64,000 nt of DNA from Bacteroidales bacterium (GTDB taxonomy: Bacteria > Bacteroidota > Bacteroidia > Bacteroidales > Prolixibacteraceae), in NCBI GenBank assembly GCA_047975005.1, contig JBKECW010000040.1:12496-76495 (forward strand). Direction: 5' to 3'. The notes under the pieces were generated by a model that did no database searches, was not told the origin of the DNA, and was given only the letters and a program-made list of their open reading frames with translations. This document shows positions 8,145-25,183 of the stretch, piece after piece. A program made the position numbers and the translations under genes. The first letter of the stretch is position 1; each line of letters starts with the position of its first letter.

Positions 8145-8247
8145 GTACCGAGGACTACATGCTAGACCAATTGCTGTAAAAACAGTCGCATTTGAAAGAA
8201 AATACAGATTGAATACGGCTGATTGGCTTGTTGAATAATAATTTGTA

Positions 8248-8255
8248 TATATTTG
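8248..8255 (+). promoter_or_regulatory. Candidate -7 box TAtaTTTG upstream of ORF 8277
   Basis: Exact TAnnTTTG match 22 nt upstream of the ATG. Confidence 0.35.
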
Positions 8256-8276
8256 TAGTCGATAAAAAAGAATATT

Positions 8277-9212
8277 ATGAATGACAATAAAATAACAAAC
8301 CAAGACCAACAAGTATCTAATAGCTATTTGGACGAACGAAGTTCTAACAATAAAAGGAACAATCTAATTATAATAATACTTCTGGCATTGCTAGGAGTGT
8401 TGGCATATCTGTATTTTAGCCAGCGCACCCAGTTTAAAGGCTTTGAACAAGCAATGACCGTCGAGAGGGACTCGTTAAAGTCAGAGCTCAACACAATGAT
8501 AATAGGTTACGATTCGCTTTCGTCAGAAAACGACACTCTTAGCCATGAAATGTTACAGGAGAGAGACAGAGCAGACAGCCTTATAAAAGTTTTAGATCAA
8601 CAAAAGAGGTTGAGCTACCAAGAAATATCAAAATACAAAAAAGAAGTCGGTACTCTACGCGGTATAATGCGCAATTTTGTGAAACAGATAGACTCGCTCA
8701 ATGCCAAGAACGAATCTCTAATGGCTCAGGTTCAGGGGCTACAAAGCGACTATACCGCAGTGCAATCCGAGAAACAACAAATTGAGCAGTCGCGCAACCA
8801 GTTGCAAAAGGTAGTAGACAAGGCATCGAAGCTATCGGTGCGAGACTTTGGCGCAAGTTTGATAAACAAACGCGGAACGCCGGTAGATAAACGGCGGAGT
8901 GCAGTACAAATAGTCGTTGGTTTTGTAGTGAATGAAAACATCACTGCTAGCCGAGGCTCCAAAACAGCGTATGTGCGCATCGAAAGACCGGACCAAATTG
9001 TGATGGTCAGCTCTGCAAACAATATATTTAAATACGAAAACAGTAATCTGCTTTACTCAATGAAGCGAGACTTCATATATGAAGGAAAGACTTTGCCCGT
9101 CAACCTCTATTGGGATCAAGGTATAGATGACTTGCCCTTGGGATCTTACACCGTAGATCTATTTATAGATGGCAAAAATATAGCAAGCTCAAAATTTAAC
9201 ATCAATAGATAA
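8277..9212 (+). CDS. Membrane-anchored coiled-coil protein of unknown function
   Basis: One TM helix (LIIIILLALLGVLAYLYF), then about 150 aa of heptad-rich sequence (Q/E/K/L), then a beta-rich C-terminal domain of about 130 aa. I see no catalytic motif. Confidence 0.6.
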   Translation: MNDNKITNQDQQVSNSYLDERSSNNKRNNLIIIILLALLGVLAYLYFSQRTQFKGFEQAMTVERDSLKSELNTMIIGYDSLSSENDTLSHEMLQERDRADSLIKVLDQQKRLSYQEISKYKKEVGTLRGIMRNFVKQIDSLNAKNESLMAQVQGLQSDYTAVQSEKQQIEQSRNQLQKVVDKASKLSVRDFGASLINKRGTPVDKRRSAVQIVVGFVVNENITASRGSKTAYVRIERPDQIVMVSSANNIFKYENSNLLYSMKRDFIYEGKTLPVNLYWDQGIDDLPLGSYTVDLFIDGKNIASSKFNINR

Positions 9213-9255: not shown

Positions 9256-9924
9256 ATGAGAGTATTGCAATATATAGAAGATGTTGTATTCCCTCCTGTT
9301 TGCGACGGATGTGGAGGCAAACTGCTCGGTGCCGAAAAAATATTATGTGTTAAATGTCTTTCATCGCTACCATACAATATGGCTTTGGAGTTTGACAATA
9401 ACCTAATTAAGCTTTCCCCGGGTGTTCCCTTTATGTCATTGTTTACTTATCAAAAGGGGAATCTGGCTCAGAGGCTAATATATAAACTGAAGTATGACGG
9501 GCGGAAAGACATAGGCGTATTTTTGGGTAGAATTGTAGGAGAGAACTTGAATAAAACGAAGGCTCATATTGATTTTGTATTGCCAATACCTTTAACTAGT
9601 GTTAAATTTATGATAAGAGGCTTTAATCAAAGCGAAATGATAGCGCGCGGAATTTCAGAAGTTATTAAGGCTCCTGTCAATACCAATATCCTTAGAAGAA
9701 GAATGGGGTTGCGTTCTCAAACACGATTGAACAAGTGGAAACGCTGGGAAAATGTAGAGGAAAAGTTCTTTGTGTCGCCAAATAATCCAATACCGAAGCA
9801 GTCATCCGTATTGGTGGTCGATGATGTGTTTACCACAGGAGCTACTATCACCTCGTGCGTGCGACCGGCAATCGATAAGTTCTCTAAAATCTATGCTTGT
9901 GCTTTGGCAAGTGCATCGCGTTAA
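9256..9924 (+). CDS. comF: ComF-family phosphoribosyltransferase-domain protein
   Basis: N-terminal double Cys pairs (CDGCG...CVKC) and a C-terminal PRPP-binding loop VLVVDDVFTTGATI. Confidence 0.85.
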   Translation: MRVLQYIEDVVFPPVCDGCGGKLLGAEKILCVKCLSSLPYNMALEFDNNLIKLSPGVPFMSLFTYQKGNLAQRLIYKLKYDGRKDIGVFLGRIVGENLNKTKAHIDFVLPIPLTSVKFMIRGFNQSEMIARGISEVIKAPVNTNILRRRMGLRSQTRLNKWKRWENVEEKFFVSPNNPIPKQSSVLVVDDVFTTGATITSCVRPAIDKFSKIYACALASASR

Positions 9925-10322: not shown

Positions 10323-12275
10323 ATGAAAATTTTTTACGTTAGAATTTGCAGTTTAATATTACTTTTAGTGCTTGTTGGAACAGCAACTGAAGTGTGCGCT
10401 GCCGGGTACTTTAGAGATACGGTGAGTTATGTATGCGGAGCATCAAGGTCTCACGTGTATCTAGACAAAGAAGTTGGGATAGACAATCTTGATGTGAATC
10501 AAGGCTATTGGTTGCTTATTCATAGCGATCAGTATGCTACTGTAAATCCTGACGATCTAAGCTCCATCACTCAGCCTATGGTTATTGATACCGTTAGCAA
10601 TGCTTTCGGGTTGGTGGGAAGGCCGTATGGAGCATACGACCTTATTTTTGTTTCTACCCAAAACCAGCAGTGCGGGATTAACGTTGATGGAATGGCGCAC
10701 TTGCGTTTGAATATCCTTCCTCCTTCCGAACATTTCTATATAGGACAGGTGTGCGTGTCAAACGGTACTATTATTCTCAACAATGTGTTAGAAGAGCTAA
10801 TGCCTTCATTTGAGGAAGGGCGCGACGAAATCGTGTGGACTCATTACAAACTAAACGATGCTAATGACTTGGTAGAAGCTAACGATGGGTTAAATACCTC
10901 CACAGGTGAGCTAAGCCTTGATAAATACCTCGGAACAGAAGTAACGATAAACTTCTCGTTGACCAGACAAATAGATGGACACACAATAAACAATTGCTCT
11001 GATGGCTCTATAACATTAGAGGTCGTAGACAGTGTTGAACCCCAGGGAACGATAAACTCCGTTCCTTTTTGCATTGAGTCCTTGCCTGATACGGTTTCAC
11101 TAAACCAATTATTAGGAATGGGTTTTCCCTCAAGTTCTACAGATGCGTGGTCATCGTCGGACGGAGTTAGCATAGTAGGAAGCAAAGTTCCACTGAAATC
11201 CGCTGTGAAGAAGTATATAACCGATAATTCTGCAAGACCTACACAATTCGAATTTAAGCTGACAAGAACAATAGATGCATCCAAATGCATAACGCAAGGT
11301 GAAGAGACATTGATAATTAAATTTGTGGACTCGGATTTTAGAATGCCCTCCGATATTCCTCTTAGTGATGTTTGTCAGTACGCCGATCCTTATATTAATC
11401 TGTATGAGAAGATGGGGCTTGCGCTACCATCAAATGCAGGAACATGGAAAGTAGAGCCTGCAATAGATCCTGCATTCTTTAGCGACGGACGTCTTGTTAC
11501 TATTGGGCTGCAAGAGGGCGAGTATAAATTTACTTATATAATCGACGAAACTATCGATACCACCTTGGCTTGTGCTATTGGCATTGATACTGTTAGACTG
11601 AATTTTAAGTTTAATGAGGATAACGGTCTAAAAGGTACCTCTATACAAGTCTGCGAAGACAATGCCGACAATATCAATTTATATAGCCTCCTAATGAATA
11701 GGAATTACACTACTCATCTTGATGATGGCTATTGGGCAGAGGTAAACAATAAAGATGTAGTCTTGGAAAAACTTACTTCAGCTCAGGCTAGCAATGTAGA
11801 CCTGTCCGGAAAGCCTAACAATACCTACATGTACCGATTTACTGACACAACAGAGAGTTTTTGCGGAGACAGTGTTGCCTTGGTGTATGTTACAAAAACG
11901 CGGAATGTCGCGGTGAGCTCTAGAACAATATCGATGTGTCATTTGTTTAACACTGCAGATACCTTTAGTTTGACAGCATTTGCCGGATTGGCAGGTGTGT
12001 GTGGAACATGGTCATGGGAGGATGTTGATGGTGCGGGAAGTGTTATAAAGGCTGACGGAACTCCTGCTACAAACGGAAGCGCACAAAATGCTGATGGTTT
12101 GTTTTTTCTAGCTAACGATGAATATTCTACAAATCCTCCTGCGGGAGAAGAGTATAAACAATACAAATTCACATTTAAAGTCGGACCGGACTGTGATGGC
12201 TGCGGTTTGAAAAAAGATCAAGAGATACCTTTTTATGTGAATATTACTAGTAATATGATTGACGGATTACCTTAA
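10323..12275 (+). CDS. Secreted six-module Cys-bracketed repeat protein, paralogue A (no T9SS sorting domain)
   Basis: Signal peptide, 14 Cys in the mature part, and six modules of about 100 aa collinear with ORFs B-E. It ends ...FYVNITSNMIDGLP. Confidence 0.85.
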   Translation: MKIFYVRICSLILLLVLVGTATEVCAAGYFRDTVSYVCGASRSHVYLDKEVGIDNLDVNQGYWLLIHSDQYATVNPDDLSSITQPMVIDTVSNAFGLVGRPYGAYDLIFVSTQNQQCGINVDGMAHLRLNILPPSEHFYIGQVCVSNGTIILNNVLEELMPSFEEGRDEIVWTHYKLNDANDLVEANDGLNTSTGELSLDKYLGTEVTINFSLTRQIDGHTINNCSDGSITLEVVDSVEPQGTINSVPFCIESLPDTVSLNQLLGMGFPSSSTDAWSSSDGVSIVGSKVPLKSAVKKYITDNSARPTQFEFKLTRTIDASKCITQGEETLIIKFVDSDFRMPSDIPLSDVCQYADPYINLYEKMGLALPSNAGTWKVEPAIDPAFFSDGRLVTIGLQEGEYKFTYIIDETIDTTLACAIGIDTVRLNFKFNEDNGLKGTSIQVCEDNADNINLYSLLMNRNYTTHLDDGYWAEVNNKDVVLEKLTSAQASNVDLSGKPNNTYMYRFTDTTESFCGDSVALVYVTKTRNVAVSSRTISMCHLFNTADTFSLTAFAGLAGVCGTWSWEDVDGAGSVIKADGTPATNGSAQNADGLFFLANDEYSTNPPAGEEYKQYKFTFKVGPDCDGCGLKKDQEIPFYVNITSNMIDGLP

Positions 12276-12298
12276 AGAATTAATTATTAACAATATAA

Positions 12299-14164
12299 AT
12301 GAATCGTATAAATTTAATTAGAATCTTTATTATGAGAAAGTTGTTTACTTTTCTTGTTAGTGTTGTAGCAATGCTAACAATATCTATGGGTACTGCAAGC
12401 TCACAATGCAAGGTGTTTAGTGTTGACACCATGTATGTTTGTCCTGCGGATCTTAGTACTCCAATTGACCTAGAGAGCCAAGTAGTTGGAATTAATTTTG
12501 AAGAAGGAAAAGGTATATGGTACGCTATTCCTGTGAATACAGAAATAGGTGCTGCGGATACTTGTAAATTCCCTCTTGCTAATTCGACCGAAGTAGAGGG
12601 TGGAATTTTTATTACTGCAGAAGCTTCTGAAGGACAAACGTACACTTTTCTTTACCGTTCTACAGAGAGTCAAGGTTGTGGTATCGAGCAAGGTGGTGTA
12701 GCTATCGCTACTATAATAACAGTAAGTAAAGGTAATCTTGAATTTGATGTTTGTGAGAATAAGGGACCTCTAGACCTGTTGGGTATTCTGAACGCAGAGG
12801 TACCTCAAAAAATTGGTGAGGGTGACTACACTGAAGATGACATTGTGTTCTACAATTATGTAGCAATAGTTGATGCCGACGGACTTACTTATGAAAAAGG
12901 CGATGTCATCTCCGACCAGCAGTTGGTTATTGACGGAAAAGGCGGTGGCCATCCGGTAAAAGTAGGCTACGAAGTGAAAAGAAGACCCGGAAACGGCGAT
13001 TCTATCTCATGTATGCTTGGAGATTTAGTATTTAATGTATATGATAGCAATGATTCAATTGTTATTAAAGATGACACTACTGCATTCTGTAGTAAGGATG
13101 AATATGCTTCCACAGATTCTATTAGATTGAATGATCTTATTACACCTGTTTTACATGGTACCTGGACAGCCTTAGGATCTGCTCCTGTAGTAAGCTCTAC
13201 CGGAAGAATTTCTAAAGGAGATGCTGCTGCTGCTGCTGCTGCTAATGGTGGTAATGTGAAATATACATATTCATATAAAAAAGGCTGTGATCCAGAGACT
13301 GACGGTACTGCTACTCTTACTATTGAGTTCAAAGAGATATCAATTCCGAATGGTAAGAAAGATACTACTAGTTTCTGTTCTAATGAGAATGGCAGAATAG
13401 ACTTTGATCTTTGGATTGGTGCAGAGCTTCCTAATGGAGACTGGTCATCAACTACTACACCAGATTTTTCAGGCTTGATTAGCGAGGGTAACGTCTTGAA
13501 CACTGCTGTTTTGCCAGCTGGAGAGCATACCTTTAAATGGGTTAAAAACTCAACAGTTGAATCGAACTGTGATTATCCGGATTCACTATTCTTTACTATA
13601 GTAATCAACGAGGCTTATTCTCAAGGAGATATTGTTAGAAAATTCTGTAAAACCTCAGGTCTTGTAGACTACGATTTGAACTCTCTGTTAGAAGCTGATG
13701 CAAGTGGAAAATGGCAAATAAAGGATGGAAGTGCATACGCAGACGTAAGCGATCCTACTAATTTCAACCTAGATTCATTTGCAACAACTGACGGTCCTGT
13801 AGGAGAACTTGTGTATATCATAGGCGACGCTGACGCTGCTTGTGGAGTTGACTCTGTTTCAGTATTCTTATCGTTTGTAGATAATATTATTCTTAACGAC
13901 AGAGAAAAATACTTCTGTATTTACATGGACGATGCTAAAAACATTAACATAACCAATATTCTAGGTAGCGAGCTTGAAGATGGAAAATGGTTGAATCCTA
14001 CAACAGCAGAACCTGGTTCTATTACTGGAACAGAACAGAATCCAATTTTTAATGGCTCTTTGAATGTAGCAGGTGACTATGTATTTACATACACAGGAAA
14101 AGACTGTAACGGTGTAGAGCAGACTGCGACAGTTACAATAAAACTTGGAACTGAATTGCCATAA
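12299..14164 (+). CDS. Secreted six-module Cys-bracketed repeat protein, paralogue B (no T9SS sorting domain)
   Basis: Collinear with A, C, D and E. The signal peptide is more canonical if translation starts at ATG 12332 (MRKLFTFLVSVVAMLTISMGTASS|QC). 14 Cys. Contains an Ala7 run. It ends ...VTIKLGTELP. Confidence 0.85.
   Translation: MNRINLIRIFIMRKLFTFLVSVVAMLTISMGTASSQCKVFSVDTMYVCPADLSTPIDLESQVVGINFEEGKGIWYAIPVNTEIGAADTCKFPLANSTEVEGGIFITAEASEGQTYTFLYRSTESQGCGIEQGGVAIATIITVSKGNLEFDVCENKGPLDLLGILNAEVPQKIGEGDYTEDDIVFYNYVAIVDADGLTYEKGDVISDQQLVIDGKGGGHPVKVGYEVKRRPGNGDSISCMLGDLVFNVYDSNDSIVIKDDTTAFCSKDEYASTDSIRLNDLITPVLHGTWTALGSAPVVSSTGRISKGDAAAAAAANGGNVKYTYSYKKGCDPETDGTATLTIEFKEISIPNGKKDTTSFCSNENGRIDFDLWIGAELPNGDWSSTTTPDFSGLISEGNVLNTAVLPAGEHTFKWVKNSTVESNCDYPDSLFFTIVINEAYSQGDIVRKFCKTSGLVDYDLNSLLEADASGKWQIKDGSAYADVSDPTNFNLDSFATTDGPVGELVYIIGDADAACGVDSVSVFLSFVDNIILNDREKYFCIYMDDAKNINITNILGSELEDGKWLNPTTAEPGSITGTEQNPIFNGSLNVAGDYVFTYTGKDCNGVEQTATVTIKLGTELP
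13223..13243 (+). repeat. Perfect (GCT)7 trinucleotide repeat encoding Ala7 inside paralogue B
   Basis: gctgctgctgctgctgctgct read directly. The translation is GDAAAAAAANGG. Confidence 0.95.
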
Positions 14165-14181
14165 TTGCAATTTTGATATTA

Positions 14182-14218
14182 AATCACTCTAGAGTAATAA
14201 AAACTCTAGAGTGATTTT
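14182..14218 (+). terminator. Hairpin terminator between paralogues B and C
   Basis: Perfect 14-bp inverted repeat aatcactctagagt / actctagagtgatt with a 7-nt loop, ending in TTTT, 18 nt after the stop of B. Confidence 0.6.
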
Positions 14219-14246
14219 AAAAAAAAAAGAATAAAACAGGAAAGCA

Positions 14247-16244
14247 ATGAAAAAGATTATAAGCCTTATATTTACGTGTGCGATACTGGTTTCATTATCG
14301 GCAAATACATTTGCACAATGTGGAAAAAGCTTGTTCAGGGATGTAACCATCTATAGGTGTGAGACAGATTACACACCCATCGACCTCGTTACCGAATCAG
14401 GCTTAGGTCTTTCATTAAATGGTGGATTTTGGGTGCAGATTGTACCCGGTACACTAGATGTTACACCAGGCACAGGAGAGGTAGGATGTATTCCTATCGA
14501 GAAATATGCGACAGTGATAGGAGACATAGCAAACGGAGAAGTAGATCTCGGTAATGTTTATAATCAAGGAGAGTCAAATATAGGTACCTACGAGTTTATA
14601 TACGTAGTAACACATAGCCAAGGTTGTGGTGTAATGGCCGATGACATGGTTAGGGTTAAACTTAGAGTATTGTCAGATCCTCAGAATATAAAATCGGATG
14701 CTTGTCCTGATTTGACTGTTGACCTTTATTCTATAATCCAGCCTTATTATCAAGAGTTGAATATCAACTCATCGACAGTTGTCGACTTTGCTGTAGTAGG
14801 CAATGGTTCAGATGATAATCTGGACGCATCGAAAGGAGAATATTTTACAGGAGGTAGAAACGGACAAACAGTCGAAATTCAGTTTACTGTTATTAGACCC
14901 GAGGTATCGTGCAACATCAATAATTTAATTTTGAAAATTGCTGATAGAGATGGTCTAGATACTTTGGCAAAGACTGATACAGTCAATTTATGTAGGTTTG
15001 CCATAAGCGACCCACTTGATTTGTACACTGTTTCAGGAATAGACTCGGCATTGTACAGTACTTCTGGAAACTGGAAACAAACTAGCGGACCGGTGATGTT
15101 TGGTTCGCATAATACAGTTACACCAAGTGGTGTAATAGACACATCAGGTGCAGCATTTGCTGACACTTATTGGAGCAGTGGCTTGTATATATTTGAATTT
15201 AGTGGATATAATACAAATCCTTGCGACAATATAACAGGTACCGAAACTGCAGAAGTGGTTTTGAGAGTAACTGATAATTTATTGCCTTTTGCAGTCGATA
15301 CGACTCATAGTCTGGAGTGCAACAATTCAACATTAATCGAATTAGATTCTTATTTGCCAGTGAGTTTACCCTCAGGTGCAGGTAGTTGGTTGGACTCTGT
15401 TTACTATTTCGATGGAACTACATTGACAGGTTATAAAGACATTAATGAATCTCTTGGCGCAGATGTAGTAATAGGCAATTTGTTTTATGCTTCGTTGCCA
15501 GTGGTAAGACCCGGCTCATATTATTTTAAATATCGAGTTAGTGGAATAAATGACAAACTTTGTGGCTTAGCCAAAAAAGAGTTTGTTGCAGCAATAGAAC
15601 TAGCGCAGGCATCAAACTTAGTATCTCAGAGTTTAGAGATTTGTTCTCAGAATATTGATAAATCGCTAAACCTATTTAGTCTTTTGAATGAACCCGTAGA
15701 GCAACAAGATAGCGTTTGGTCGTTCAATGACACAAAACTAAGTGCAGAAGAGGCAAGCTCTTTTGTACCATCAGAGCATGGATTTAGAAATAATCAGACT
15801 TATGTTCTGGATTATCTGGACGATGCAGTATCTTGCGGAACATCATCAGCATCGTTGTATGTTACCGTTAAAGAGTCTATCCTAATAGGGGATACAGTAG
15901 AAATGTACTACTGTTATTCTAATGGGGCAGAGATTATAAATATATCTAACTTGGCAGGTTTTGTCGGAGTTAGTGGAAATTGGACTTGGAAAGCTGATCC
16001 TAGTTCCTATACTATAAGTGCTGAAAATGTTGTTAAGGCTGATGGGTCAATTCACTCAGGAGCTTCGACAGGTGGCGCAATTTATTTGAAAGGTAGAAAT
16101 CAGTATCTTTCTAATAATTCGGCAGCAAACGGTCAGATATCTTATATATTCACATTCGAGCCAACAGCTGGTGCAGACAATTGTCTTACCGGTGCAGACA
16201 AGGCAGTTGTGAAGGTTATTATTGGTGATACGATGACACCATAA
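14247..16244 (+). CDS. Secreted six-module Cys-bracketed repeat protein, paralogue C (no T9SS sorting domain)
   Basis: Signal peptide ...ANTFA|QC, 14 Cys, and modules collinear with A, B, D and E. It ends ...VVKVIIGDTMTP. Confidence 0.88.
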   Translation: MKKIISLIFTCAILVSLSANTFAQCGKSLFRDVTIYRCETDYTPIDLVTESGLGLSLNGGFWVQIVPGTLDVTPGTGEVGCIPIEKYATVIGDIANGEVDLGNVYNQGESNIGTYEFIYVVTHSQGCGVMADDMVRVKLRVLSDPQNIKSDACPDLTVDLYSIIQPYYQELNINSSTVVDFAVVGNGSDDNLDASKGEYFTGGRNGQTVEIQFTVIRPEVSCNINNLILKIADRDGLDTLAKTDTVNLCRFAISDPLDLYTVSGIDSALYSTSGNWKQTSGPVMFGSHNTVTPSGVIDTSGAAFADTYWSSGLYIFEFSGYNTNPCDNITGTETAEVVLRVTDNLLPFAVDTTHSLECNNSTLIELDSYLPVSLPSGAGSWLDSVYYFDGTTLTGYKDINESLGADVVIGNLFYASLPVVRPGSYYFKYRVSGINDKLCGLAKKEFVAAIELAQASNLVSQSLEICSQNIDKSLNLFSLLNEPVEQQDSVWSFNDTKLSAEEASSFVPSEHGFRNNQTYVLDYLDDAVSCGTSSASLYVTVKESILIGDTVEMYYCYSNGAEIINISNLAGFVGVSGNWTWKADPSSYTISAENVVKADGSIHSGASTGGAIYLKGRNQYLSNNSAANGQISYIFTFEPTAGADNCLTGADKAVVKVIIGDTMTP

Positions 16245-16286
16245 TCAACACATCGTAGGATTTCACTATATTGGAAAAGTGAATAT

Positions 16287-16294
16287 TAATTTTG
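16287..16294 (+). promoter_or_regulatory. Candidate -7 box TAatTTTG upstream of paralogue D
   Basis: Exact TAnnTTTG match in the 214-bp C-D spacer, 165 nt upstream of the ATG. There is no good -33 element. Confidence 0.3.
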
Positions 16295-16458
16295 AAGAAA
16301 TAAGACTTGAGTGCAGAGACTTCGAGCAAGTGTAATTGCAACTGCAAGTTGAACTATAAACGATAGATATTTAGGGTTTTATAAGAATTATTTTAAGGGC
16401 GATGAAATTGGAAGTTGTATCAGATAGTATGACGAGGGTTTGAATAAATGAACTTATT

Positions 16459-18393
16459 ATGAGAATTAAACAATTAATACTGGGGCTTATATTTGTTGCA
16501 TTGTCAGCAACAACAGCTTTTTCACAGGCTAGTTATGTCGTAGACAAAACTGTCTATGCCTGCGAAGACCAACATGAGCCAATAAATTTAGTGAAAAGTA
16601 CAGGGATGCAGCTTACTCCTAATGCCGGTTATTGGGTGAGAATTGTTCCCGGTTCTCATTTGGATAATAGCATTCCGATGAATGCTACTATTATCGCTGA
16701 AAGAATATCTCCTATCTTCGGCATTGAAGGTCGTGCGTATGGTACTTATGAGTTTATTTATGTCGCTACAGCTGTTCAGATGTGCGGCATAAACAGGGAT
16801 GATTTTATCCGTGTTGTGCTTGAAATAGAGCCTAGTGCAAAAACACTAACTCGCTTTGCCTGTGGAGGTGAGGTTGTAGATCTGAGCGCAATTCTGCAAT
16901 CGCAGAACTTTGATCAGACTAGCATCGATAATGCTGAGTGGGCAGTGCTCAACAGTAACAACGAGCCGCTTGTCCCCGCAGATGATAATCTTGACCTAAG
17001 TAATAAAACATACAATACTGCAGGCAGAGAAGGACAAAGCATTACTTTCTCTTATGTGCTTGATAGAACAGAAGTTGGCTGTAATTCGGGTTTCATGGTT
17101 TTAGAAGTAGGAGACAAGTATATACACCAACTGTTGGCAGATACAGTACAGAAACTTACTTGTATTGGCGATGTTGCAACACCTAGTAATATTAATCTGA
17201 ATGCAATGCTGGGCATATCGCAAGATATATATGGCGGTGCTTGGTCGGTAGTGTCGTCTTCGTCGGCATCCCTGAGTGCTGGCAATATAAGCATTGATGC
17301 ATCAGGTAGTATTTCTGTGGATGCTAGCTCCGGAGAGTCTTTTCCGCAGGTTGGCGAATTTGTATTCAAATATTCTTACAAGGCTGAGTTTTGCTCGGGC
17401 AGTGGCATCGATACATTCTCAATACTAAAACTTACTGTTAAGGACGATCTTAGCACAGACTTTGTCGGCACTGACACTACCTATTGCGAAAATTATGGCA
17501 CCGTAGATTTGTTCTCTTTGCTAAACAATATATCACTACCTTCATCATCAGGAACATGGGATGTCCTTTACAACGGTAACCTAATTCCTAATAGCTTGAA
17601 GCCTTTTGATGTTGAAAATGGAGTATTTTCAACTCTGATGGCAGACGTTGGTGTTTATACATTCAAATATTATGTCTCTCAGTCGGCGCAAGATTTGTGC
17701 GGATTGACTGGACTAAATGCCGAGTTTACAATCAATATCTCCGAAGCAGTAGAAATTGTTGATGCTGCCCGTCAGATGTGTGCCGGCTCGACAGAAAGAA
17801 TCAACCTTTATAATGTCTTTAATGAACATATAAATCCGCAAAACTGGGATGTTTTCTATAATGGAAGTCAGATTTCAAAAGCTGACGCCTTGGCATACAG
17901 CCCATCGGCAAATTCATTGCAAGCCAACCAGTCGCATCTGTTTAACTATAAATATTCCGGATCTGAGAATGTATGTGGTGTAGATTCAGCAAATTTCTAC
18001 TTGACATTGCGCAGCGAAGGACTAGAACTGAACAATCAGAAACGTTATTTCTGTAGCTATATTGGTGCCGACGAAATAAATATCTCTGATATACTCGGTG
18101 TGGTCGGAATAGACGGAAGCTGGGAAGTGCAAAGTGAGGTGTTGAGCAATGTGTTTACCGTAGATAATCAGGGAAATATAATATCGCATAGCAATACTAC
18201 AATTGTAGAGAATACAGGACTATTCTTTAAAGGCAAAGAACAATATGAGGATGACTTAGTAAGCAGTGGTGTTGCCGGAGATAGAACTTATGAATTTACT
18301 TTTACTCCAAGCAATAATAATGCTTGTATCGATAGTGATAAATTACAGCCTGTAACGGTTACGATTATTATAGGCGAAGATATTACTCAGTAA
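16459..18393 (+). CDS. Secreted six-module Cys-bracketed repeat protein, paralogue D (no T9SS sorting domain)
   Basis: Signal peptide ...TTAFS|QA. Exactly 12 Cys, two per module. It ends ...VTVTIIIGEDITQ. Confidence 0.88.
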   Translation: MRIKQLILGLIFVALSATTAFSQASYVVDKTVYACEDQHEPINLVKSTGMQLTPNAGYWVRIVPGSHLDNSIPMNATIIAERISPIFGIEGRAYGTYEFIYVATAVQMCGINRDDFIRVVLEIEPSAKTLTRFACGGEVVDLSAILQSQNFDQTSIDNAEWAVLNSNNEPLVPADDNLDLSNKTYNTAGREGQSITFSYVLDRTEVGCNSGFMVLEVGDKYIHQLLADTVQKLTCIGDVATPSNINLNAMLGISQDIYGGAWSVVSSSSASLSAGNISIDASGSISVDASSGESFPQVGEFVFKYSYKAEFCSGSGIDTFSILKLTVKDDLSTDFVGTDTTYCENYGTVDLFSLLNNISLPSSSGTWDVLYNGNLIPNSLKPFDVENGVFSTLMADVGVYTFKYYVSQSAQDLCGLTGLNAEFTINISEAVEIVDAARQMCAGSTERINLYNVFNEHINPQNWDVFYNGSQISKADALAYSPSANSLQANQSHLFNYKYSGSENVCGVDSANFYLTLRSEGLELNNQKRYFCSYIGADEINISDILGVVGIDGSWEVQSEVLSNVFTVDNQGNIISHSNTTIVENTGLFFKGKEQYEDDLVSSGVAGDRTYEFTFTPSNNNACIDSDKLQPVTVTIIIGEDITQ

Positions 18394-18462
18394 ATGAGAA
18401 AATGTGCTTAGTTCAATGTTTTTGATCTTGAAGAGAACAAATAGGAAGAAAAAAAATAACTT

Positions 18463-21400
18463 ATGAGAGTTTTTTATAGGATATTGAGATTGTGTATACT
18501 GGTGCTTGCGCCAACATTATCATCACTCTGTGCTAGTGCACAAAGCACTGGTGAGAGGTATACATTTGATACGGCTTTTTGTATTAGTGAATCCTTTCCG
18601 ATTAACCTTAATACTGTCACAGAAAAACAACTGCCACCGCAAGCGGGGGAATGGGTTGATGCTAAAGATGGTAGCGAGGTGTCGTTTGTATTCGACCCAC
18701 AGGGAAAAGCCGCAGGAAGATATGAATATCATTTCTTGCCATCCAAAACTGTTTGCGGATTGTATCCTGGCGATACAGTAGCAGTTATAATAGACTTGTT
18801 TCCCGATTCAGGGCTCAAGGATTTTGTTCTCTCTATTTGCGAGGAGTCTAATGTAGACTTGTGGTTAGCAATACATGCTCTTCCTATTGATACTAGCTAT
18901 ATTGAGTTTTACGACAATGATGGTAAACTTCTAACAGTCAATGAAGCATCTTCGGCTAACGTAGGTCGCGATGATGTTACTCAGTTTTACTATAAAGTAA
19001 ATCACCCTAATGCCTGCAATCAGGATTCCGGCTTTGTTTATTTCAACCTTGACGAAGTGCCATTTGACCTTGCAAATACCAACTCCGAGGAGGTTAGATT
19101 CTGTGCGAATAATACGCCGCATATGATTAACCTTAATGATGTAATCGGAGGTATTGCAGAAGAATGGCAATTGAAAGATTTTGCAAGTCAACCTTCTGAT
19201 CTGCAAAATTTGATAAATAGATTGTTGGATGTAAGGACAGGTGAATTTCATATTAAAGAAGCCAGTTTGTCTGGTTATACAGAGTTTAATTTTCAGGCTA
19301 TAAGCTCTTCTTCTTGCGGTGCAGGGGTGTCTAATGTTGTTAAGATTATTATAGACCCTGCTGACAATATAAATTTTGCTAATCTTGGTGGAGACACATT
19401 GAAATTGTGCAGTAGCGATATGTCTCAGGTATATAGTTTGAACAGATATTTGAACGTAGTACTTCCTGATAACAGTATAAAATGGACTACCGAAGACCTT
19501 GCCGCTAAGTCTTTCCTAGACACAACAGGGATTTTAGATGCAAGAAATTTGGTGCCTGGGTTCTATACTTTCACTGCGACGTATGTAGACAACACAGAGG
19601 AATGCGGACTAAGAACAGGACAAAGCACCAATATTTATATGTTGATACAGGATGAGTTGGAGTTTGGAACAACCAACCTACTTGCATCAATGTGCTATAA
19701 TAGTACAGAGAACTTGAATGATATGATGCCAACACAGTTGGGGATGAATATCAGTTTTGAGTTGCAAAATCCTAATGACAACAGTTCAATAATATTGAGT
19801 GAATCAGAGATTGAGGCTTTCTCTCCTGCAAATTACCCATCTGTTATTACAGATGCAACAGATACTACCTATCAAATACTTTACTCATTCACAGATGCTG
19901 TGTGCAAAAATACTGACTACAAGGATACTTTGTACCTAACAGTATTGACAGGTAATGAAAATGTAGAATTGTCGGACAAAGATTTGTACGCATGCTACTC
20001 TAGTGCCGGATTGATAAAACTTCAGCATATACTTGGGTATTATGGCAAAGGTACATGGGCAAGTGCAGAACCTCTTGACTATTTTGATGCAACAAATGGA
20101 GAGTTTTACGGAAAAACTCAATTTATAGCAGATAATGTTATAACCGAGAAGGCTTACAGCTTTACATTTACTCCTGATGCAGCAAGCTCTTGCTTGACAG
20201 TAAACAGTCCTGTAAATGTGATTGTTACCCTTACAAATGACCTTGAAGGCTCGGCACCCGATGAGAACTATGTAGTGACAGACACTATACAAAATGAAGA
20301 CAGACGTCCTATAAATCTTATGGATTATATAGAGCTAAGTTCTCTTGAAGGATATTGGACTCTCGATGACTTAAGCACGCCGACATCTATGGTACTCAAT
20401 CTTGAAGATTTTGAAAGATACCCAGAAGGCGAATACAACTTTGTATATACAGTGCCAGGCAATGGAGAACATTGTGTTAATGATACAATTTATTTCCGCG
20501 TGAATCTAGTTCTGTATGGTCTGCCTCTCAACGTACAAGACTCTTTGATGGCAATCACATGTAGCAGTGAGGATAATGGTGGTATATATGTCAATATAAT
20601 TGAAGGCTCAAAACCATACAACGTAGTGTTGACTCAGTTTGTTGATGGAACAACTAGTACAATATTCAACGGGACATTTGCTGCCGAAACTGACACAACA
20701 TTCACTCCTCTTGAAGGAATGTATGAACTTTGTATTGTCGATTTTGCAAATGATACATTTAGGAATACCTATAATATTGTAAGACCGGAGCCTATTATGG
20801 TTAATAAAATACAGGTACATAATGTGACTAGTGGTCAGAGAAATAATGGTGTGCTCGAGGTGAGAATATCCGGAGGTACAGATCCTTACTATGCTATAGT
20901 TATAGGTAGCTGTGATCCTGTGCTTAATACATGTAACGACTTTATAACAGACTCTGTGATATGGTCTGAAAAGGATGATTCGCACAAATACTTCTTGAGC
21001 TACGACTCTCTACCTGCCGGAGATTACAGAATCTTTGTGATGGATTCATCGAGATACTACTATTACGATAACGACGATTTAGTAACTGCTAACTTGACAA
21101 ATCTTGACGCCGGAGTTTGTTCGATAGACACATTCTTTACAATAGGAAACGACCCATTAATGCTGAATTGTCCTGATACATTATCAGTATATGGAAGTGA
21201 AAACTGTGAGTTTACTATCCCGAATATCAAAGCACTTGTAGGCTTAAGTGGAGGTGCCGAAGATTACGACTTAACGGTTGTTGTTCAAGACCCTGAAACA
21301 GGAGAGTATATTACAGGAGCAATTCTGCCTAGCGATGTAGAGAAGTATTATGAGGTGAATGTGTATGCTAGAGCACCTATTGCCGGTGGAGCTACTGATG

Positions 21401-21756
21401 CCAACGGACAGGTAATACTCGATACATTGGCTCAATGTCAGGTAGTACTTGATGTAACATGTAGAAAAGACCTAATCGTTGGACAGATTATTACTCCAAA
21501 CAACGATGGTAAGAACGATACATGGTTGATACAAGGATTGGAGAATTATCCAAATCACAAAATCAGAGTATATGGTAGATGGGGAGATTTAGTCTTCGAG
21601 ACCAGCTACTATAGAAATGACTGGGCTGCCGACTGTAGAACCGCAAACTGCATGGGTAATGGAAATCTTCCTGTAGGAACTTACTACTGGATAATAGATC
21701 TAGGTATTGAAGGCGACAATGAGGTGCTAAGCGGATTCATGGAAGTAGTCTACTAA
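18463..21756 (+). CDS. T9SS type-B cargo: paralogue E. Six Cys-bracketed modules, one extra module, SprB-type repeats and a gliding-motility-associated C-terminal domain
   Basis: Residues 1-599 are collinear with A-D. Residues 600-1001 contain SprB-like repeats (ITCSSEDNGGIYVNIIEGSKPY and NNGVLEVRISGGTDPYY). The last 96 aa or so match the type-B CTD pattern. Confidence 0.9.
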   Translation: MRVFYRILRLCILVLAPTLSSLCASAQSTGERYTFDTAFCISESFPINLNTVTEKQLPPQAGEWVDAKDGSEVSFVFDPQGKAAGRYEYHFLPSKTVCGLYPGDTVAVIIDLFPDSGLKDFVLSICEESNVDLWLAIHALPIDTSYIEFYDNDGKLLTVNEASSANVGRDDVTQFYYKVNHPNACNQDSGFVYFNLDEVPFDLANTNSEEVRFCANNTPHMINLNDVIGGIAEEWQLKDFASQPSDLQNLINRLLDVRTGEFHIKEASLSGYTEFNFQAISSSSCGAGVSNVVKIIIDPADNINFANLGGDTLKLCSSDMSQVYSLNRYLNVVLPDNSIKWTTEDLAAKSFLDTTGILDARNLVPGFYTFTATYVDNTEECGLRTGQSTNIYMLIQDELEFGTTNLLASMCYNSTENLNDMMPTQLGMNISFELQNPNDNSSIILSESEIEAFSPANYPSVITDATDTTYQILYSFTDAVCKNTDYKDTLYLTVLTGNENVELSDKDLYACYSSAGLIKLQHILGYYGKGTWASAEPLDYFDATNGEFYGKTQFIADNVITEKAYSFTFTPDAASSCLTVNSPVNVIVTLTNDLEGSAPDENYVVTDTIQNEDRRPINLMDYIELSSLEGYWTLDDLSTPTSMVLNLEDFERYPEGEYNFVYTVPGNGEHCVNDTIYFRVNLVLYGLPLNVQDSLMAITCSSEDNGGIYVNIIEGSKPYNVVLTQFVDGTTSTIFNGTFAAETDTTFTPLEGMYELCIVDFANDTFRNTYNIVRPEPIMVNKIQVHNVTSGQRNNGVLEVRISGGTDPYYAIVIGSCDPVLNTCNDFITDSVIWSEKDDSHKYFLSYDSLPAGDYRIFVMDSSRYYYYDNDDLVTANLTNLDAGVCSIDTFFTIGNDPLMLNCPDTLSVYGSENCEFTIPNIKALVGLSGGAEDYDLTVVVQDPETGEYITGAILPSDVEKYYEVNVYARAPIAGGATDANGQVILDTLAQCQVVLDVTCRKDLIVGQIITPNNDGKNDTWLIQGLENYPNHKIRVYGRWGDLVFETSYYRNDWAADCRTANCMGNGNLPVGTYYWIIDLGIEGDNEVLSGFMEVVY
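21466..21756 (+). other. T9SS type-B sorting domain (gliding motility-associated C-terminal domain, TIGR04131-like) of paralogue E
   Basis: KDLIVGQIITPNNDGKNDTWLIQGLENYPNHKIRVYGRWGDLVFE...LPVGTYYWIIDL...GFMEVVY. These are the hallmark ITPNGDGxND, hxhxNRWG and GTYYY-like elements. Confidence 0.85.
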
Positions 21757-21779: not shown

Positions 21780-22709
21780 ATGATATATTTAAAGAAATTG
21801 AGGTTTTGTATAATGTTAGGGGCGATGTCGCTCCTAACATACAACGGAGTTTTTGCACAGCAAAAAGTTCAGAACACTATGTATCTGTTTAATCCGCTTT
21901 CTTATAACCCCGCTTATGCAGGAACAAATGAAGAGTTGTCAGCATCGGCAGTATTTAGGAATCAGTGGACAAAGATTGACGGTGCCCCGGTAACAGGGTT
22001 TCTAACTGTTGAGTCTCCTGTTTGGAAGAACCTTTCGGTTGGTGTAAGTGCAGAATACGACCAACTTGGAGCAAGAACAAATGCGGGAGGTGCTCTAGAC
22101 CTTGCCGCAAAGATTAAGATAAACCAACAAGGGCAGTTTCTTTCTATGGGTATAAAATTGGGGATTAACAACGTGAATTTTGACCATACAAAGTTCAATA
22201 GTGTTATTAATGATGGCGACCCTAGTAACCTGTCATGGTCTAGAACCAACTTCAACTTCGATGTCGGCTTGTATTGGTATGGTGAAAGGTTTTATTTTGG
22301 TGCTTCGACCTTGTCTTTGCTAGAGAATCCACTAGTTGAAAATGGAGTTGAGGGACAGTACAAGAGTAAAATGCACTTTTACAACTTCGGAGCATATTAT
22401 TGGGAGTTTTCTAGGAATGTAGCATTTAAACCCTCGTATATGCTCAAATATGTTGAAAATGCACCAATCTCTGTCGATTTAAACGCTAGCTTTTTGTTGT
22501 ATAATTTAGCGTGGATAGGAGGAAATTATAGGTATGACAATACTGTTGGAGCGCATCTTATAATGAATATATCCCCTAACTTGGAATTAGGTTATGCATA
22601 CGAGTTCGCCATTGGCAAGGATAGCCAGAGCTTTGGTGGAACACACGAAGTTATGCTTAGATACAGATATAAGAGAGATATCAAGTTTAGAACGCCACGA
22701 CGTTTCTAA
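21780..22709 (+). CDS. PorP/SprF-family type IX secretion system membrane protein
   Basis: Signal peptide GVFA|QQ, then the family-typical N-terminus (FNPLSYNPAYAGT and FRNQWTKIDGAP). About 300 aa of beta-barrel-like sequence. Starts 23 nt after the type-B cargo gene. Confidence 0.88.
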   Translation: MIYLKKLRFCIMLGAMSLLTYNGVFAQQKVQNTMYLFNPLSYNPAYAGTNEELSASAVFRNQWTKIDGAPVTGFLTVESPVWKNLSVGVSAEYDQLGARTNAGGALDLAAKIKINQQGQFLSMGIKLGINNVNFDHTKFNSVINDGDPSNLSWSRTNFNFDVGLYWYGERFYFGASTLSLLENPLVENGVEGQYKSKMHFYNFGAYYWEFSRNVAFKPSYMLKYVENAPISVDLNASFLLYNLAWIGGNYRYDNTVGAHLIMNISPNLELGYAYEFAIGKDSQSFGGTHEVMLRYRYKRDIKFRTPRRF

Positions 22710-22854: not shown

Positions 22855-25098
22855 ATGAAACTTATTGCAAGAATATCCATCATACTGGTGTTTTCGGTAT
22901 TGACCGCTGGTTGCTTGAGTGCACAGAGTGCTTTGCAAGCCGATAGATATTGGAACGATTTGGCGTATGTTAAGTCTTCAGAGGCCTATGCTAAACTATT
23001 GAAAAAGGATCCTAAAAATCCACTTTATCTAAAACGAGCGGCTAACTCTTTCTATGAAACTGGTGACTTCAAGGTCTCGTCTAGGTTTTTTGCTTCTTTA
23101 GAAAGAGCCGGAGAACTTGAAGGAGACGATGTTTTTACTTACTTCCAAATTCTGTTAATGCTGAATAACGATGTAGAGGCGAAGCGGGTTTTAGACCAAA
23201 ATCTTGCAAATGCGTCAGACTCAGAGTTGTATCCGGTGTTGAATACATGGAAGCAGGATTTTCTTCAAAGGGAGAGCCTAAAAGATGGTGTCTATGATAT
23301 TGATTTCTTGGATGTTCCTATAAATTCAAAGCAGGCTGATTTTGCTCCTACATTTTATGGAGATGGTATTGTGTTTGCATCAAGTAGACCCAATCCGACG
23401 AAAAAAGCAAGTATTTTTGAAGGTGATGGGGCGTCATTCCTAGATTTGTACTTTGCCAAGCTGACTGACAACGGAGAGTTTACGAAAGTACTGCCTTTTG
23501 ATGCAGAAGTAAATACAGAGTACCATGATGGACCTGTTGTATTTTCTAGTGACGGTCAGACAATGTACATCTCTCGCAGTTTCTATAAAGCAGAGAGCAG
23601 CAAAAAAATTAAGGGCGATAAGAATGGTGTAGTAAACACCAAAATACAAGTAGTAAATAAAGATGAGAATGATAAGTGGACAAAAATAACTGAGTTCCCT
23701 TACAATGATCCCAGCAATATGGTAGCCCATGCCGCAATATCCGCAGACGGGCAAACAATGGTGTATGCATCCAATCAACAAGACGGCTATGGCCGAAGTG
23801 ATTTGTATGTTTGTACCGGAGACGAATACGGCTGGTCTGAGCCTGTAAACCTGGGAAGCTACATTAATACCGCTGGCGAAGAGCTGTTCCCTTCTATCAA
23901 TAGTGACGGAGATTTGTTCTTCTCATCAAATGGTCTTCTTGGACTAGGAGGTTTGGACGTTTTTATGGTACAAGGTTTTTTGAGTGGAGCGAGAGATGTT
24001 GTCAATATTGGAGCTCCGGTCAATTCGGCATATGATGATTTTGGTATGGTATATGACTTCAATAAAAAGATAGGCTTTTTTAGCTCGAATAGAGAAGGAG
24101 GACTAGGAAGTGATGATATATATCAATTTCGCTTTAAAGCTACAGCATTTAAAGTGTTGGCATACAATTGTGAATCTACGGCAGCCAATCCTGAACTTAT
24201 TTCGGGAGCGACCGTTAAGGTTGACGACTTGTCGGATGTATTTATTCTAGAAACGGCAACAGACAGCAAAGGGATTGGCGAGGTGAAATTAGCTACACAA
24301 GATATAAAAATTACACTCCAAGCAGATGGATATCTTGACACTTCTGTTGTTGTGCCCATGTCAGACTTTGAGAAGTATGTTGACAATCCGTTGAAGATTG
24401 CTATCTGTAAAGAGCCTGTATTACCACCACCTACTGATTTGGAGATTGCATATAGTAATTTGGATATACCATCAAATTTGAATATTAATTTTGATCTTGA
24501 TAGTTGGGATATTACAGACGAAGCTGCTTATAAGCTAGATCAGGTTTTTGATATAATGATGAATCCTAAGTACATAAAGACAAAGGCATCATTGGCGGCT
24601 CATACAGACTCTCGCGGACAAGACGAATACAACGAGTGGTTATCGTGGAAACGTGCATGGTCTACAATAAAATACCTTATGATAAAAGGTTTAAGTTTTG
24701 ACCGCCTATATGGAATCGGGTATGGGGAGAGACGCCTTATGAACCAATGCGCAAATGGTGTTAGATGTTCTGAGTCAAACCATAGGGAGAATCGTCGGGT
24801 TGAAATAACAAATATGAGTGAAGAAAACCCGGAAATAGCAATGCTTACATTGAGTATGAATCCATTTGATAAGCCTCAGACTTATTATACCGTAGAAGTT
24901 CTTGTCTATAGTAGGCTTGTCGGTTCGAAGTCTAAAGACAAGGATACGGCGGGATATGCTCATTATATCAAAAAAGGAAGTAAATATCATCATATGATAG
25001 GGTATTTTAAAACTCGTGAGGATGCTGCTAAGTTTATGGAGCAGATAGGGTTTAAATCCCCAAAAATACGCTTTGTACAAAACGGGACGATTCAGTAA
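22855..25098 (+). CDS. OmpA-family protein with TPR, PD40 (TolB-like) repeats, an OmpA C-terminal domain and a SPOR-like tail
   Basis: PD40-like repeats (DFAPTFYGDGIVFASSR, GPVVFSSDGQTMYISR, AAISADGQTMVYASN, FPSINSDGDLFFSSN). The OmpA_C core runs from NFDLDSWDI through HTDSRG to NRRVEI. The last 72 aa or so are SPOR-like (YTVEVLV...HHMIGYFKTREDAAKFMEQIGF...IRFV). Confidence 0.85.
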   Translation: MKLIARISIILVFSVLTAGCLSAQSALQADRYWNDLAYVKSSEAYAKLLKKDPKNPLYLKRAANSFYETGDFKVSSRFFASLERAGELEGDDVFTYFQILLMLNNDVEAKRVLDQNLANASDSELYPVLNTWKQDFLQRESLKDGVYDIDFLDVPINSKQADFAPTFYGDGIVFASSRPNPTKKASIFEGDGASFLDLYFAKLTDNGEFTKVLPFDAEVNTEYHDGPVVFSSDGQTMYISRSFYKAESSKKIKGDKNGVVNTKIQVVNKDENDKWTKITEFPYNDPSNMVAHAAISADGQTMVYASNQQDGYGRSDLYVCTGDEYGWSEPVNLGSYINTAGEELFPSINSDGDLFFSSNGLLGLGGLDVFMVQGFLSGARDVVNIGAPVNSAYDDFGMVYDFNKKIGFFSSNREGGLGSDDIYQFRFKATAFKVLAYNCESTAANPELISGATVKVDDLSDVFILETATDSKGIGEVKLATQDIKITLQADGYLDTSVVVPMSDFEKYVDNPLKIAICKEPVLPPPTDLEIAYSNLDIPSNLNINFDLDSWDITDEAAYKLDQVFDIMMNPKYIKTKASLAAHTDSRGQDEYNEWLSWKRAWSTIKYLMIKGLSFDRLYGIGYGERRLMNQCANGVRCSESNHRENRRVEITNMSEENPEIAMLTLSMNPFDKPQTYYTVEVLVYSRLVGSKSKDKDTAGYAHYIKKGSKYHHMIGYFKTREDAAKFMEQIGFKSPKIRFVQNGTIQ

Positions 25099-25121
25099 GT
25101 AAATAAATAAATTTCTATTAG

Positions 25122-25155
25122 AAGTGAGGCATTATTTATGCCTCACTTTTTTTTT
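25122..25155 (+). terminator. Rho-independent terminator closing the T9SS cargo/PorP/OmpA block
   Basis: 11-bp stem aagtgaggcat / atgcctcactt, a 5-nt loop, then a T-run. Confidence 0.8.
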
Positions 25156-25183
25156 GAAATTTATTATTTTTGAACTACCTTTG
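25153..25183 (+). promoter_or_regulatory. Candidate promoter of the phosphohexomutase gene (-33 TTTG, 19-nt spacer, -7 TAccTTTG)
   Basis: TTTG at 25153-25156 and TACCTTTG at 25176-25183. The ATG is at 25204. Confidence 0.55.

Follow-up and report, generated by a model that had tools for sequence, protein, structure and literature searches.

Cargo proteins of type B that are encoded together with their cognate carrier, similar to SprF, and a homologue of PorE have been proposed to form static type IX secretion system (T9SS) complexes that are anchored to the cell wall, and PG1035-PorP-PorE and Fjoh_3952-3951-3950 are given as such operons, with five in Flavobacterium johnsoniae (PMC9143113, PMC12618676). 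The carrier SprF, for its part, joins the gliding track via a C-terminal Cys-X-Cys tail (PMC12635249). In Aureispira, GhpA of the GhpA-GhpB-GhpC grappling hook is a T9SS substrate with tandem immunoglobulin (Ig)-like repeats and disulfides (bioRxiv 10.1101/2024.01.29.577165; PDB 9flp and related entries). Here we analyse a stretch of 64,000 nucleotides (the window) from a Bacteroidales bacterium of the Prolixibacteraceae (assembly GCA_047975005.1, contig JBKECW010000040.1, positions 12,496 to 76,495), in which five tandem paralogous genes, A to E, encode proteins with six Cys-bracketed modules each and are followed by genes for a PorP/SprF-family carrier and a PorE-like protein.

Only E carries a C-terminal sorting domain (CTD), which is of type B. 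We think it probable that this region forms the variable, structural portion of a cassette for T9SS type B surface anchoring, in which A–D would be partner subunits of a surface structure. Judged from sequence and gene context, A–D are most likely conserved partners of the triad formed by E, the carrier and the PorE-like protein, and not independent genes. The module and the triad are both of known kinds; the family of CTD-less six-module partners, here with four free copies and one CTD-bearing copy, is absent from the literature searched, in which no description of such a conserved family was found. The main yield of the analysis is therefore a compact conserved cassette, in which cargo, carrier and PorE-like anchor are accompanied by one to four six-module rods that have no sorting signal. 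An earlier note on this DNA, made from the letters alone, ended at position 20259, short of the CTD of E and of the genes for the PorP/SprF carrier and the PorE-like protein, from which the array gains its functional context.

Five collinear six-module paralogues

Five open reading frames of the lengths given in the earlier note are present in a row on the + strand: A (10323-12275; 650 residues), B (12299-14164; 621 residues), C (14247-16244; 665 residues), D (16459-18393; 644 residues) and E (18463-21756; 1097 residues). The spacers A-B, B-C, C-D and D-E measure 23, 82, 214 and 69 bp, respectively. A–D and the first ~600 residues of E (18463-20259, signal peptide and six modules) are collinear end to end, with 21-30 % identity in BLASTP comparisons. 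C and D are the closest pair (30 % identity over 682 columns, E 1e-68); the other pairs give E-values of 6e-31 (A/D), 7e-29 (A/C), 1e-17 (B/C) and 1e-9 (A/B), with B the most divergent paralogue, and residues 1-642 of D align with residues 8-594 of E at E 3e-18. When A–E are aligned with two orthologues (seven sequences), 29 columns are invariant, including 11 Cys. The five frames thus align significantly with one another (E 1e-9 to 1e-68), and as collinear paralogues with one module order they bear out the earlier proposal that the whole six-module gene was duplicated, and not single repeats. The peptide strings that had been quoted from D, and from module 1 of C and D, all recur in the translations.

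For module comparisons, the proteins were divided wherever a module begins with its opening Cys. The modules are ~100 residues long (84-117 residues), with variable inserts between the G-x-W and G-x-Y strands, and conform to the consensus C-x(5-8)-I-N-L...G-x-W...G-x-Y-x-F-x-Y...C. Whether 30 or 42 modules are aligned, the two Cys are the sole invariant columns, and the Trp of G-x-W is at least 90 % conserved. D contains exactly 12 Cys, two per module, spaced 65-91 residues from first to second and 26-31 residues from the second to the first of the next module. A hidden Markov model (HMM) of the module identifies six modules in each of A–D (residues 35-647 in A) and six plus a degenerate seventh in E, in agreement with the 31 modules counted before, and no further modules elsewhere in the window. 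The six module types are mutually homologous, most pairs reaching E-values from 1e-4 to 6e-9 in hhalign; m1/m2 and m2/m6, the two weakest, do not reach significance by themselves. Since the Cys pair is invariant, with one Cys where strand A ends and the other in the loop that leads into the last strand, each module probably contains one disulfide, which would link the opening Cys to the Cys preceding the last strand.

By eye, the leaders of A–E look like those of signal peptidase I substrates, with a positive N-terminus and a hydrophobic core. The predicted cleavage sites of B, C, D, E and all distant relatives (see below) have A/S-x-A/S followed by Gln, and cleavage before Gln is the 'Q-rule' pattern of Bacteroidota signal peptidase I. 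Lipoprotein status was considered for A–D and rejected, as D and the orthologue of A in a related species (locus L001) have no Cys near the cleavage site.

A type B sorting domain, a carrier and a PorE-like protein

Beyond its six modules, E continues with the degenerate seventh (20302-20505, residues 614-681), which has no opening Cys and matches positions 8-89 of the module HMM at an independent E-value of 1.4e-4. A stretch of ~320 residues follows (20506-21477), for which there is no confident family match, only a weak match to Y_Y_Y at residues 834-872, and which is 68 % conserved in orthologues. The protein ends in the type B T9SS sorting domain (21478-21741, residues 1006-1093), which matches PF13585 (CHU_C) at 82.2 bits (cut-off 27; E 3e-23) and also TIGR04131 at 46.3 bits (cut-off 35). 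Neither CHU_C nor Por_Secre_tail nor a TIGR0413x model matches A–D at E<=1 in Pfam and NCBIfam scans, and a tblastn search with the E sorting domain across the window revealed no second copy and no remnant after A–D.

Only 23 bp separate E from the gene for the PorP/SprF-family outer-membrane carrier (21780-22709, + strand), which matches PF11751 (218.9 bits, E 1e-64) and TIGR03519 (213.4 bits, cut-off 90.55). The sole Cys of this 309-residue protein lies in the signal peptide, so that the mature carrier, being free of Cys, has no C-terminal Cys-X-Cys tail of the SprF type; as far as its sequence goes, this fits a static anchor. The next gene (22855-25098, + strand), referred to here as PorE-like or OmpA gene, encodes a PD40 β-propeller (E 1e-14), a weakly matching CarboxypepD_reg domain (2e-3) and a peptidoglycan-binding OmpA_C domain (E 4e-10). 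Its product scores 328 bits on CHU_0125_OmpA, below the cut-off of 620; it shares the predicted domain architecture of PorE but is not an equivalog.

The layout of these seven genes is operon-like, on one strand with gaps of 23-214 bp, and one strong terminator-like hairpin (25120-25160, + strand; a 13-bp stem and a T run) lies 3′ of the OmpA gene and closes the unit, for which we infer operon status. The flanks are chromosomal housekeeping genes, encoding a succinate dehydrogenase/fumarate reductase (SDH/FRD) flavoprotein, a tetratricopeptide repeat protein, DUF4292, PGM, FtsK and Mfd.

Two of the spacers contain further elements. In the 82-bp B-C spacer, an inverted repeat with 25-nt arms (84 % complementary) and a 7-nt loop is followed by an A/T run (14171-14227), and may act as an internal attenuator, terminator or RNA-processing site. 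The 214-bp C-D spacer contains (16275-16295) a Bacteroidota -7-like motif of the TAnnTTTG type, TAATTTTG, at 16287-16294, from which D, E and the PorP and OmpA genes may have a promoter of their own. Over the 398 bp upstream of A, the + strand has no exact TAnnTTTG. Across the window, the motif is over-represented (111 occurrences against 67.7 ± 7.2), and a scan for sigma-70 promoters was uninformative (51 sites against 49.5 expected).

A cassette conserved in related loci

The gene order A-B-C-D-E-PorP-OmpA-PGM is kept in two other Bacteroidales species known from metagenome-assembled genomes (MAGs; loci L001 and L003). The five-gene array of the window lineage thus extends across three species with 55-70 % protein identity, the orthologues of D (P0002 and P0003) being 70 % and 64 % identical. 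A scan of genome contigs returned these two MAGs and a single weak match; metagenome-contig scans for relatives found nothing, and a word-indexed protein search was nearly blind, with three matches for D, three for a 7-sequence profile and five for a 15-sequence profile. The weak match lies outside the family, in Bacteroidetes bacterium OLB9 (LNBW01000027.1, 6177-6464), with 32 % identity to residues 89-201 of the query and an E-value of 2e-5, and probably represents a further protein with modules. An exhaustive profile search (described below) additionally gave CTD-less six-module proteins of ~570-620 residues in Carboxylicivirga, a Mangrovibacterium MAG and further assemblies, and these are collinear with A–D (hhalign E 3.4e-60 over 564 columns; BLASTP of D against P0108, 5e-33).

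Nine distant loci were inspected, two of which (L012 and L015) duplicate others (L011 and L014), leaving seven distinct loci. The common order is one to four six-module genes, a CHU_C protein gene, PorP/SprF and PD40-OmpA, and is found in L001 and L003 as well as in L008, L009, L010, L011 and L013. In L008, L010, L011 and L013, a gene for a DUF1573/HYDIN-like Ig protein is followed by six-module genes 1 and 2, a gene for a short CHU_C protein (386-428 residues), PorP/SprF and PD40-OmpA, with a small extra gene between the last two in L011. The order in L009 is the same with a single six-module gene and a CHU_C protein of 541 residues. In L014, a 2,377-residue HYR/Big_2 giant replaces the DUF1573 gene, and the OmpA and PorP/SprF genes run towards the CHU_C gene from the other strand. 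L016 follows the common order as far as two PorP/SprF genes, its contig stopping before any OmpA gene, and the contig of the Mangrovibacterium-related L007 stops after the second six-module gene. The earlier note had proposed that relatives be sought with a module HMM and their neighbourhoods mapped; the searches made here show the module to be widespread and, in the loci inspected, the CTD-less genes to stand beside CHU_C, PorP and OmpA genes.

The proteins of gene 1 and gene 2 form separate clades while the gene order is fixed, from which it follows that their duplication is older than these lineages and that the order has been retained. The short CHU_C proteins contain one module, of the m1 type, which is nearest to the first module of E (E 2.6e-14, probability 98 %) and not to its seventh (probability 15 %). 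An origin of E by end-to-end fusion of a six-module gene with a short CHU_C gene is therefore unsupported; more likely, on these sequence comparisons, E is a CHU_C protein that gained modules 2-6, or the short forms have lost modules.

These arrangements also bear on the possibility that A–D are independent adhesins or secreted proteins, adjacent to E through their duplication history and exported by an unrecognised signal or in outer-membrane vesicles. Each gene does have its own start codon and signal peptide, the paralogues are just 21-30 % identical, and a promoter-like TAnnTTTG lies between C and D. However, a CHU_C gene lies directly downstream in every distant locus with enough flanking sequence, with PorP/SprF next wherever the sequence permits, and the order of genes 1 and 2 is fixed despite their ancient split. 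Moreover, the CHU_C protein of the distant loci is not a six-module paralogue, and their adjacency therefore does not stem from recent duplication. We regard independence of this kind as doubtful.

Between the window and L001, protein identity amounts to 65.5 % for A, 55.5 % for B, 66.8 % for C, 70.2 % for D and 63.3 % for E, and to 82.9 %, 78.0 % and 80.7 % for PorP, OmpA and PGM. Synonymous sites are saturated (proportion of synonymous differences, pS, ~0.75), and the corresponding non-synonymous proportion (pN) is 0.19-0.31 for A–E and 0.09-0.12 for PorP, OmpA and PGM. By this sequence measure, A–E are under purifying selection, and their non-synonymous sites change 2-4 times faster than those of their three neighbours. 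Fast non-synonymous divergence is often seen in exposed proteins. A–E together contain 41 copies of D[ST][AILVMT], the general O-glycosylation motif of Bacteroidota, where shuffled sequences predict about 17; the counts for A, B, C and E are 8, 8, 8 and 14 sites where about 3-5 are expected, a 2-3-fold enrichment, and D is not enriched (3 against 2.5 expected). Such an enrichment could be a hint of an extracytoplasmic location.

With 21-30 % identity between paralogues, conservation of the array in three species and pN far below pS, the earlier description of a highly divergent, old and maintained array holds good. The same data make it very improbable that A–D are decaying duplicates of E that have lost the CTD, or silent cassettes whose recombination with E would yield antigenic variants, as tandem diverged copies beside one complete, CTD-bearing copy might suggest. 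The reading frames are intact in all three species, every copy has its own signal peptide, there are no CTD remnants after A–D, and the family of six-module proteins without a CTD is old and conserved. No DNA repeat common to the paralogues exceeds 29 nt, which excludes recent gene conversion or cassette switching and, together with the low protein identity, makes homologous recombination implausible. Both pseudogenised duplicates and antigenic-variation or gene-conversion cassettes were rejected on these grounds; intact conserved frames, pN far below pS and the lack of long shared repeats effectively exclude decay and antigenic variation alike.

Some differences among the loci concern genes upstream of the cassette. 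A DUF1573/HYDIN-VesB-CFA65-like Ig protein (~250-360 residues) is encoded directly upstream of the six-module genes in distant loci (L008, 8898-9962; L009, 8921-9982; L010, 8895-9989; L011, 6022-7107; L013, 6965-8029; L016, 4651-5712; L007, 100-843). In the window lineage, this position is held by an unrelated gene for a 222-residue protein (9256-9924), which has no Pfam match and is ComF/phosphoribosyltransferase-like by eye. Giant repeat proteins are encoded just upstream of the cassette in L014 (257-7390, 2,377 residues) and L011 (3-5876, 1,957 residues). Finally, L001 has a Peptidase_M23 gene (524-1762) between its DUF4292 and DUF8429-like genes, where the window has only a 133-bp gap (8144-8277).

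Family and fold of the module

The earlier note had been unable to assign the modules to a named family. This stands for current models at their thresholds: no Pfam or NCBIfam model matches A–D, the module part of E or 30 single modules. K319L-like_PKD (PF22352) matches one of the 30 at E 0.025, below threshold, and a Pfam scan of the whole window proteins at E<=1 produced no PKD-family match (PF22352, PF00801 or PF18911). HYR, Big_x, cadherin-like and SprB repeat models do not match at threshold either; B has isolated sub-threshold matches to HYR_4C (E 0.012) and Big_9 (E 0.03; 5e-4 for a single module).

It does not stand for the module as such. With a profile built from window-lineage modules only, HMMER was run exhaustively against 1.84 billion representatives of 50 %-identity clusters and retrieved 2,828 clusters at E<=1e-3, of which 1,088 reach <=1e-10 and 191 reach <=1e-30. 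Most of the best matches are giant Bacteroidota T9SS cargo proteins of 2,000-6,000 residues with 20-35 near-full-profile copies, named 'gliding motility-associated C-terminal domain-containing protein' in Marivirga, Chitinophagales and Crocinitomicaceae and 'PKD domain-containing protein' in Rhodoflexus and Cytophagales. Among the best 150 matches there are 892 full-length modules with a median length of 85 residues, 855 of which have exactly two Cys, and a CHU_C domain like that of E occurs in 76 of 153 top-matching proteins. The consensus common to the window modules and the giants is C...[IV][ND]L...GxW...GxYxFxY...C...VTV, and alignment of window with external modules in hhalign gives a probability of 98.6 % (E 5e-16, 83 columns).

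Several of these giants pass PF22352. The window-only profile reaches P0004, P0012 and P0104 at E 4e-177, 4e-103 and 1e-42, and the same proteins score 136.6, 66.9 and 58 bits on PF22352 (E 3e-40, 2e-18 and 9e-16); at residues ~292-372 of P0104 both models match over their full length. PF22352 also matches 22 of 109 single modules (79 external, 30 window) at E<=0.01. A widened profile made of these 109 modules, in which the external ones dominate, was compared with solved structures and matched GhpA best (6.7e-11, with a full-length module match at 5203-5280), besides the PKD domains of KIAA0319L, the AAV receptor (2.4e-10), and of KIAA1837 (5e-3), and Anabaena All3314 (8e-10). In All3314 (PDB 7b5h_AA), three tandem stretches match, with the opening Cys and an I/V-x-L motif, so that the two-Cys module is not strictly confined to Bacteroidota. 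By these profile comparisons, the window modules are divergent forms, with inserts, of a two-Cys repeat that is very common in Bacteroidota and groups with K319L-like PKD domains through intermediates only. PKD had been dismissed by eye, and in this respect the earlier assessment is revised, with the limit that the placement in a PKD-like group is made via intermediate sequences. The modules are neither a new fold nor a new repeat class, though current models leave them unlabelled.

The Ig-like or β-sandwich fold that had been presumed from the sequence is in line with structure prediction. AlphaFold2 models D (from seven aligned sequences) with a mean predicted local distance difference test score (pLDDT) of 79.6 and a predicted template modelling score of 0.61, as six β-rich sandwich domains with 6-7 strands each and a short helix after each I-N-L motif. 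Module 4 of D alone (42-module alignment) is modelled with about six strands at pLDDT 81.9. In a Foldseek search of the Protein Data Bank (PDB), the D model matches tandem Ig/cadherin arrays, best of all the neck of GhpA (E 7e-16), with the low template modelling (TM) scores over the full model that are expected of flexible multi-domain chains. The predicted fold of the module is an Ig-like β-sandwich; on models of this kind, structure search alone cannot discriminate between Ig subfamilies.

What emerges is a poorly annotated Ig repeat of PKD-like type, probably stapled by its Cys pair, which accounts for a large share of the giant T9SS adhesins of Bacteroidota and whose profile labels several thousand repeat regions that are 'hypothetical' or partly annotated.

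Proposed assembly at the cell surface

In the assembly that we propose, all five proteins would be taken to the periplasm by Sec, and each would form a rod of six PKD-like Ig β-sandwich modules. E would then pass, via its type B CTD, through the T9SS translocon onto the carrier encoded 23 bp downstream, which is probably tied to the peptidoglycan by the PorE-like PD40-OmpA protein, so as to form a static cell-wall-anchored appendage or adhesin. A–D would most likely join E or its carrier as extra subunits of the same surface structure; it is from gene context and shared architecture that we infer their surface location and physical association with E.

Several points weigh against this proposal. 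A–D have no detectable T9SS sorting domain of either type (Pfam, NCBIfam, tblastn), and the literature searched contains no earlier case of proteins that cross the T9SS translocon, or hitchhike through it, without a CTD. On NCBIfam T9SS_PorE, the PorE-like protein scores 270 bits, where the cut-off is 600. The promoter-like motif between C and D and the hairpin between B and C leave room for more than one transcript, and the related loci all come from MAGs or assemblies. As to the module, the single-module model matches Ig domains weakly (Foldseek: Robo1 Ig5, E 4e-3, TM ~0.47), and the link to PKD is indirect, via intermediate sequences. The window-only profile found nothing significant in the PDB, where its best match was the KIAA1837 PKD domain (E 0.87) and GhpA was not reached. 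Direct hhalign comparison with PKD fragments of KIAA0319L/KIAA1837 gave a weak match, with a probability of 16 % where a reversed control had 0.2 %, and for KIAA0319L the alignment was restricted to the G-x-Y-x-F strand.

The missing sorting domain also underlies the alternative that A–D remain in the periplasm as rods or spacers, binding for instance to peptidoglycan, or to the PorP/PorE-like complex from its periplasmic side. The known T9SS substrates all need a CTD, according to published studies (PMC12618676, PMC10202324), and the conserved synteny with a gene for a peptidoglycan-binding PorE-like protein would suit such a role. On the other hand, the same module occurs overwhelmingly in secreted T9SS cargo giants, the 2-4-fold excess of non-synonymous divergence over PorP, OmpA and PGM is typical of exposed proteins, and E, by its sequence a T9SS substrate, has the same six-module rod. 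We regard a periplasmic role as unlikely, though as the main rival of the proposal.

Within the favoured reading, in which A–D are partner subunits of a surface structure, one specific form is a hetero-oligomeric stalk. A–D here, or the products of genes 1 and 2 elsewhere, might pack side by side and in register with the CTD-bearing protein, either riding on the single CTD of E through the T9SS or assembling on the PorP/SprF carrier. Such a stalk would be reminiscent of the GhpA grappling hook with its parallel strands. The idea of such a bundle is based on the equal number and order of modules in the five paralogues, together with the gene context, and we offer it as a speculation that is unlikely to hold. 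If true, it would explain why module number and order are identical across the paralogues, and T9SS export would for the first time be seen for proteins that lack a C-terminal signal of their own. More generally, should A–D reach the surface, an exception would be needed to the rule that T9SS substrates carry their own CTD, and the cassette would be a small and tractable model for the assembly and anchoring of T9SS appendages, with subunits of ~600 residues against giants of 6,000.

Comparison with known systems

At the level of the module, the closest relatives are PF22352 (K319L-like_PKD) and the giants of Marivirga, Rhodoflexus, Chitinophagales and Crocinitomicaceae, which share a two-Cys module of ~85 residues. 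The giants differ in having 20-35 modules and a CTD in one chain, and the modules of the window are longer (84-117 residues). The PKD domains of eukaryotic KIAA0319L, unlike the modules of the window, have no Cys bracket.

GhpA resembles E in its gene context as well, since genes for PorP and PorE homologues, ghpB and ghpC, follow it and are proposed anchors, just as PorP/SprF and PorE-like genes follow E. GhpA, however, is a single protein of 5,898 residues that forms a homo-heptamer with 52 stem repeats, whereas the system described here would have five separate rods of ~600 residues and one CTD.

The static triads Fjoh_3952-3951-3950 and PG1035-PorP-PorE consist of the same set of cargo, carrier and PorE-like protein as E and the genes at 21780-22709 and 22855-25098. 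They differ in that the available parts of the published accounts describe no conserved CTD-less upstream partners (PMC12618676, PMC9143113), of which there are one to four here.

In the sprC-sprD-sprB-sprF operon of F. johnsoniae, the CTD-less envelope proteins SprC and SprD are encoded with a giant type B cargo protein and its carrier SprF, and SprC moves with the same machinery (Rhodes et al. 2011, via PMC12635249). Neither SprC nor SprD is known to be a paralogue of the cargo, and SprF is not known to have a PorE-like partner. The carriers also differ, in that SprF has a Cys-X-Cys tail whereas the carrier of the window is free of Cys when mature and is followed by a PorE-like gene.

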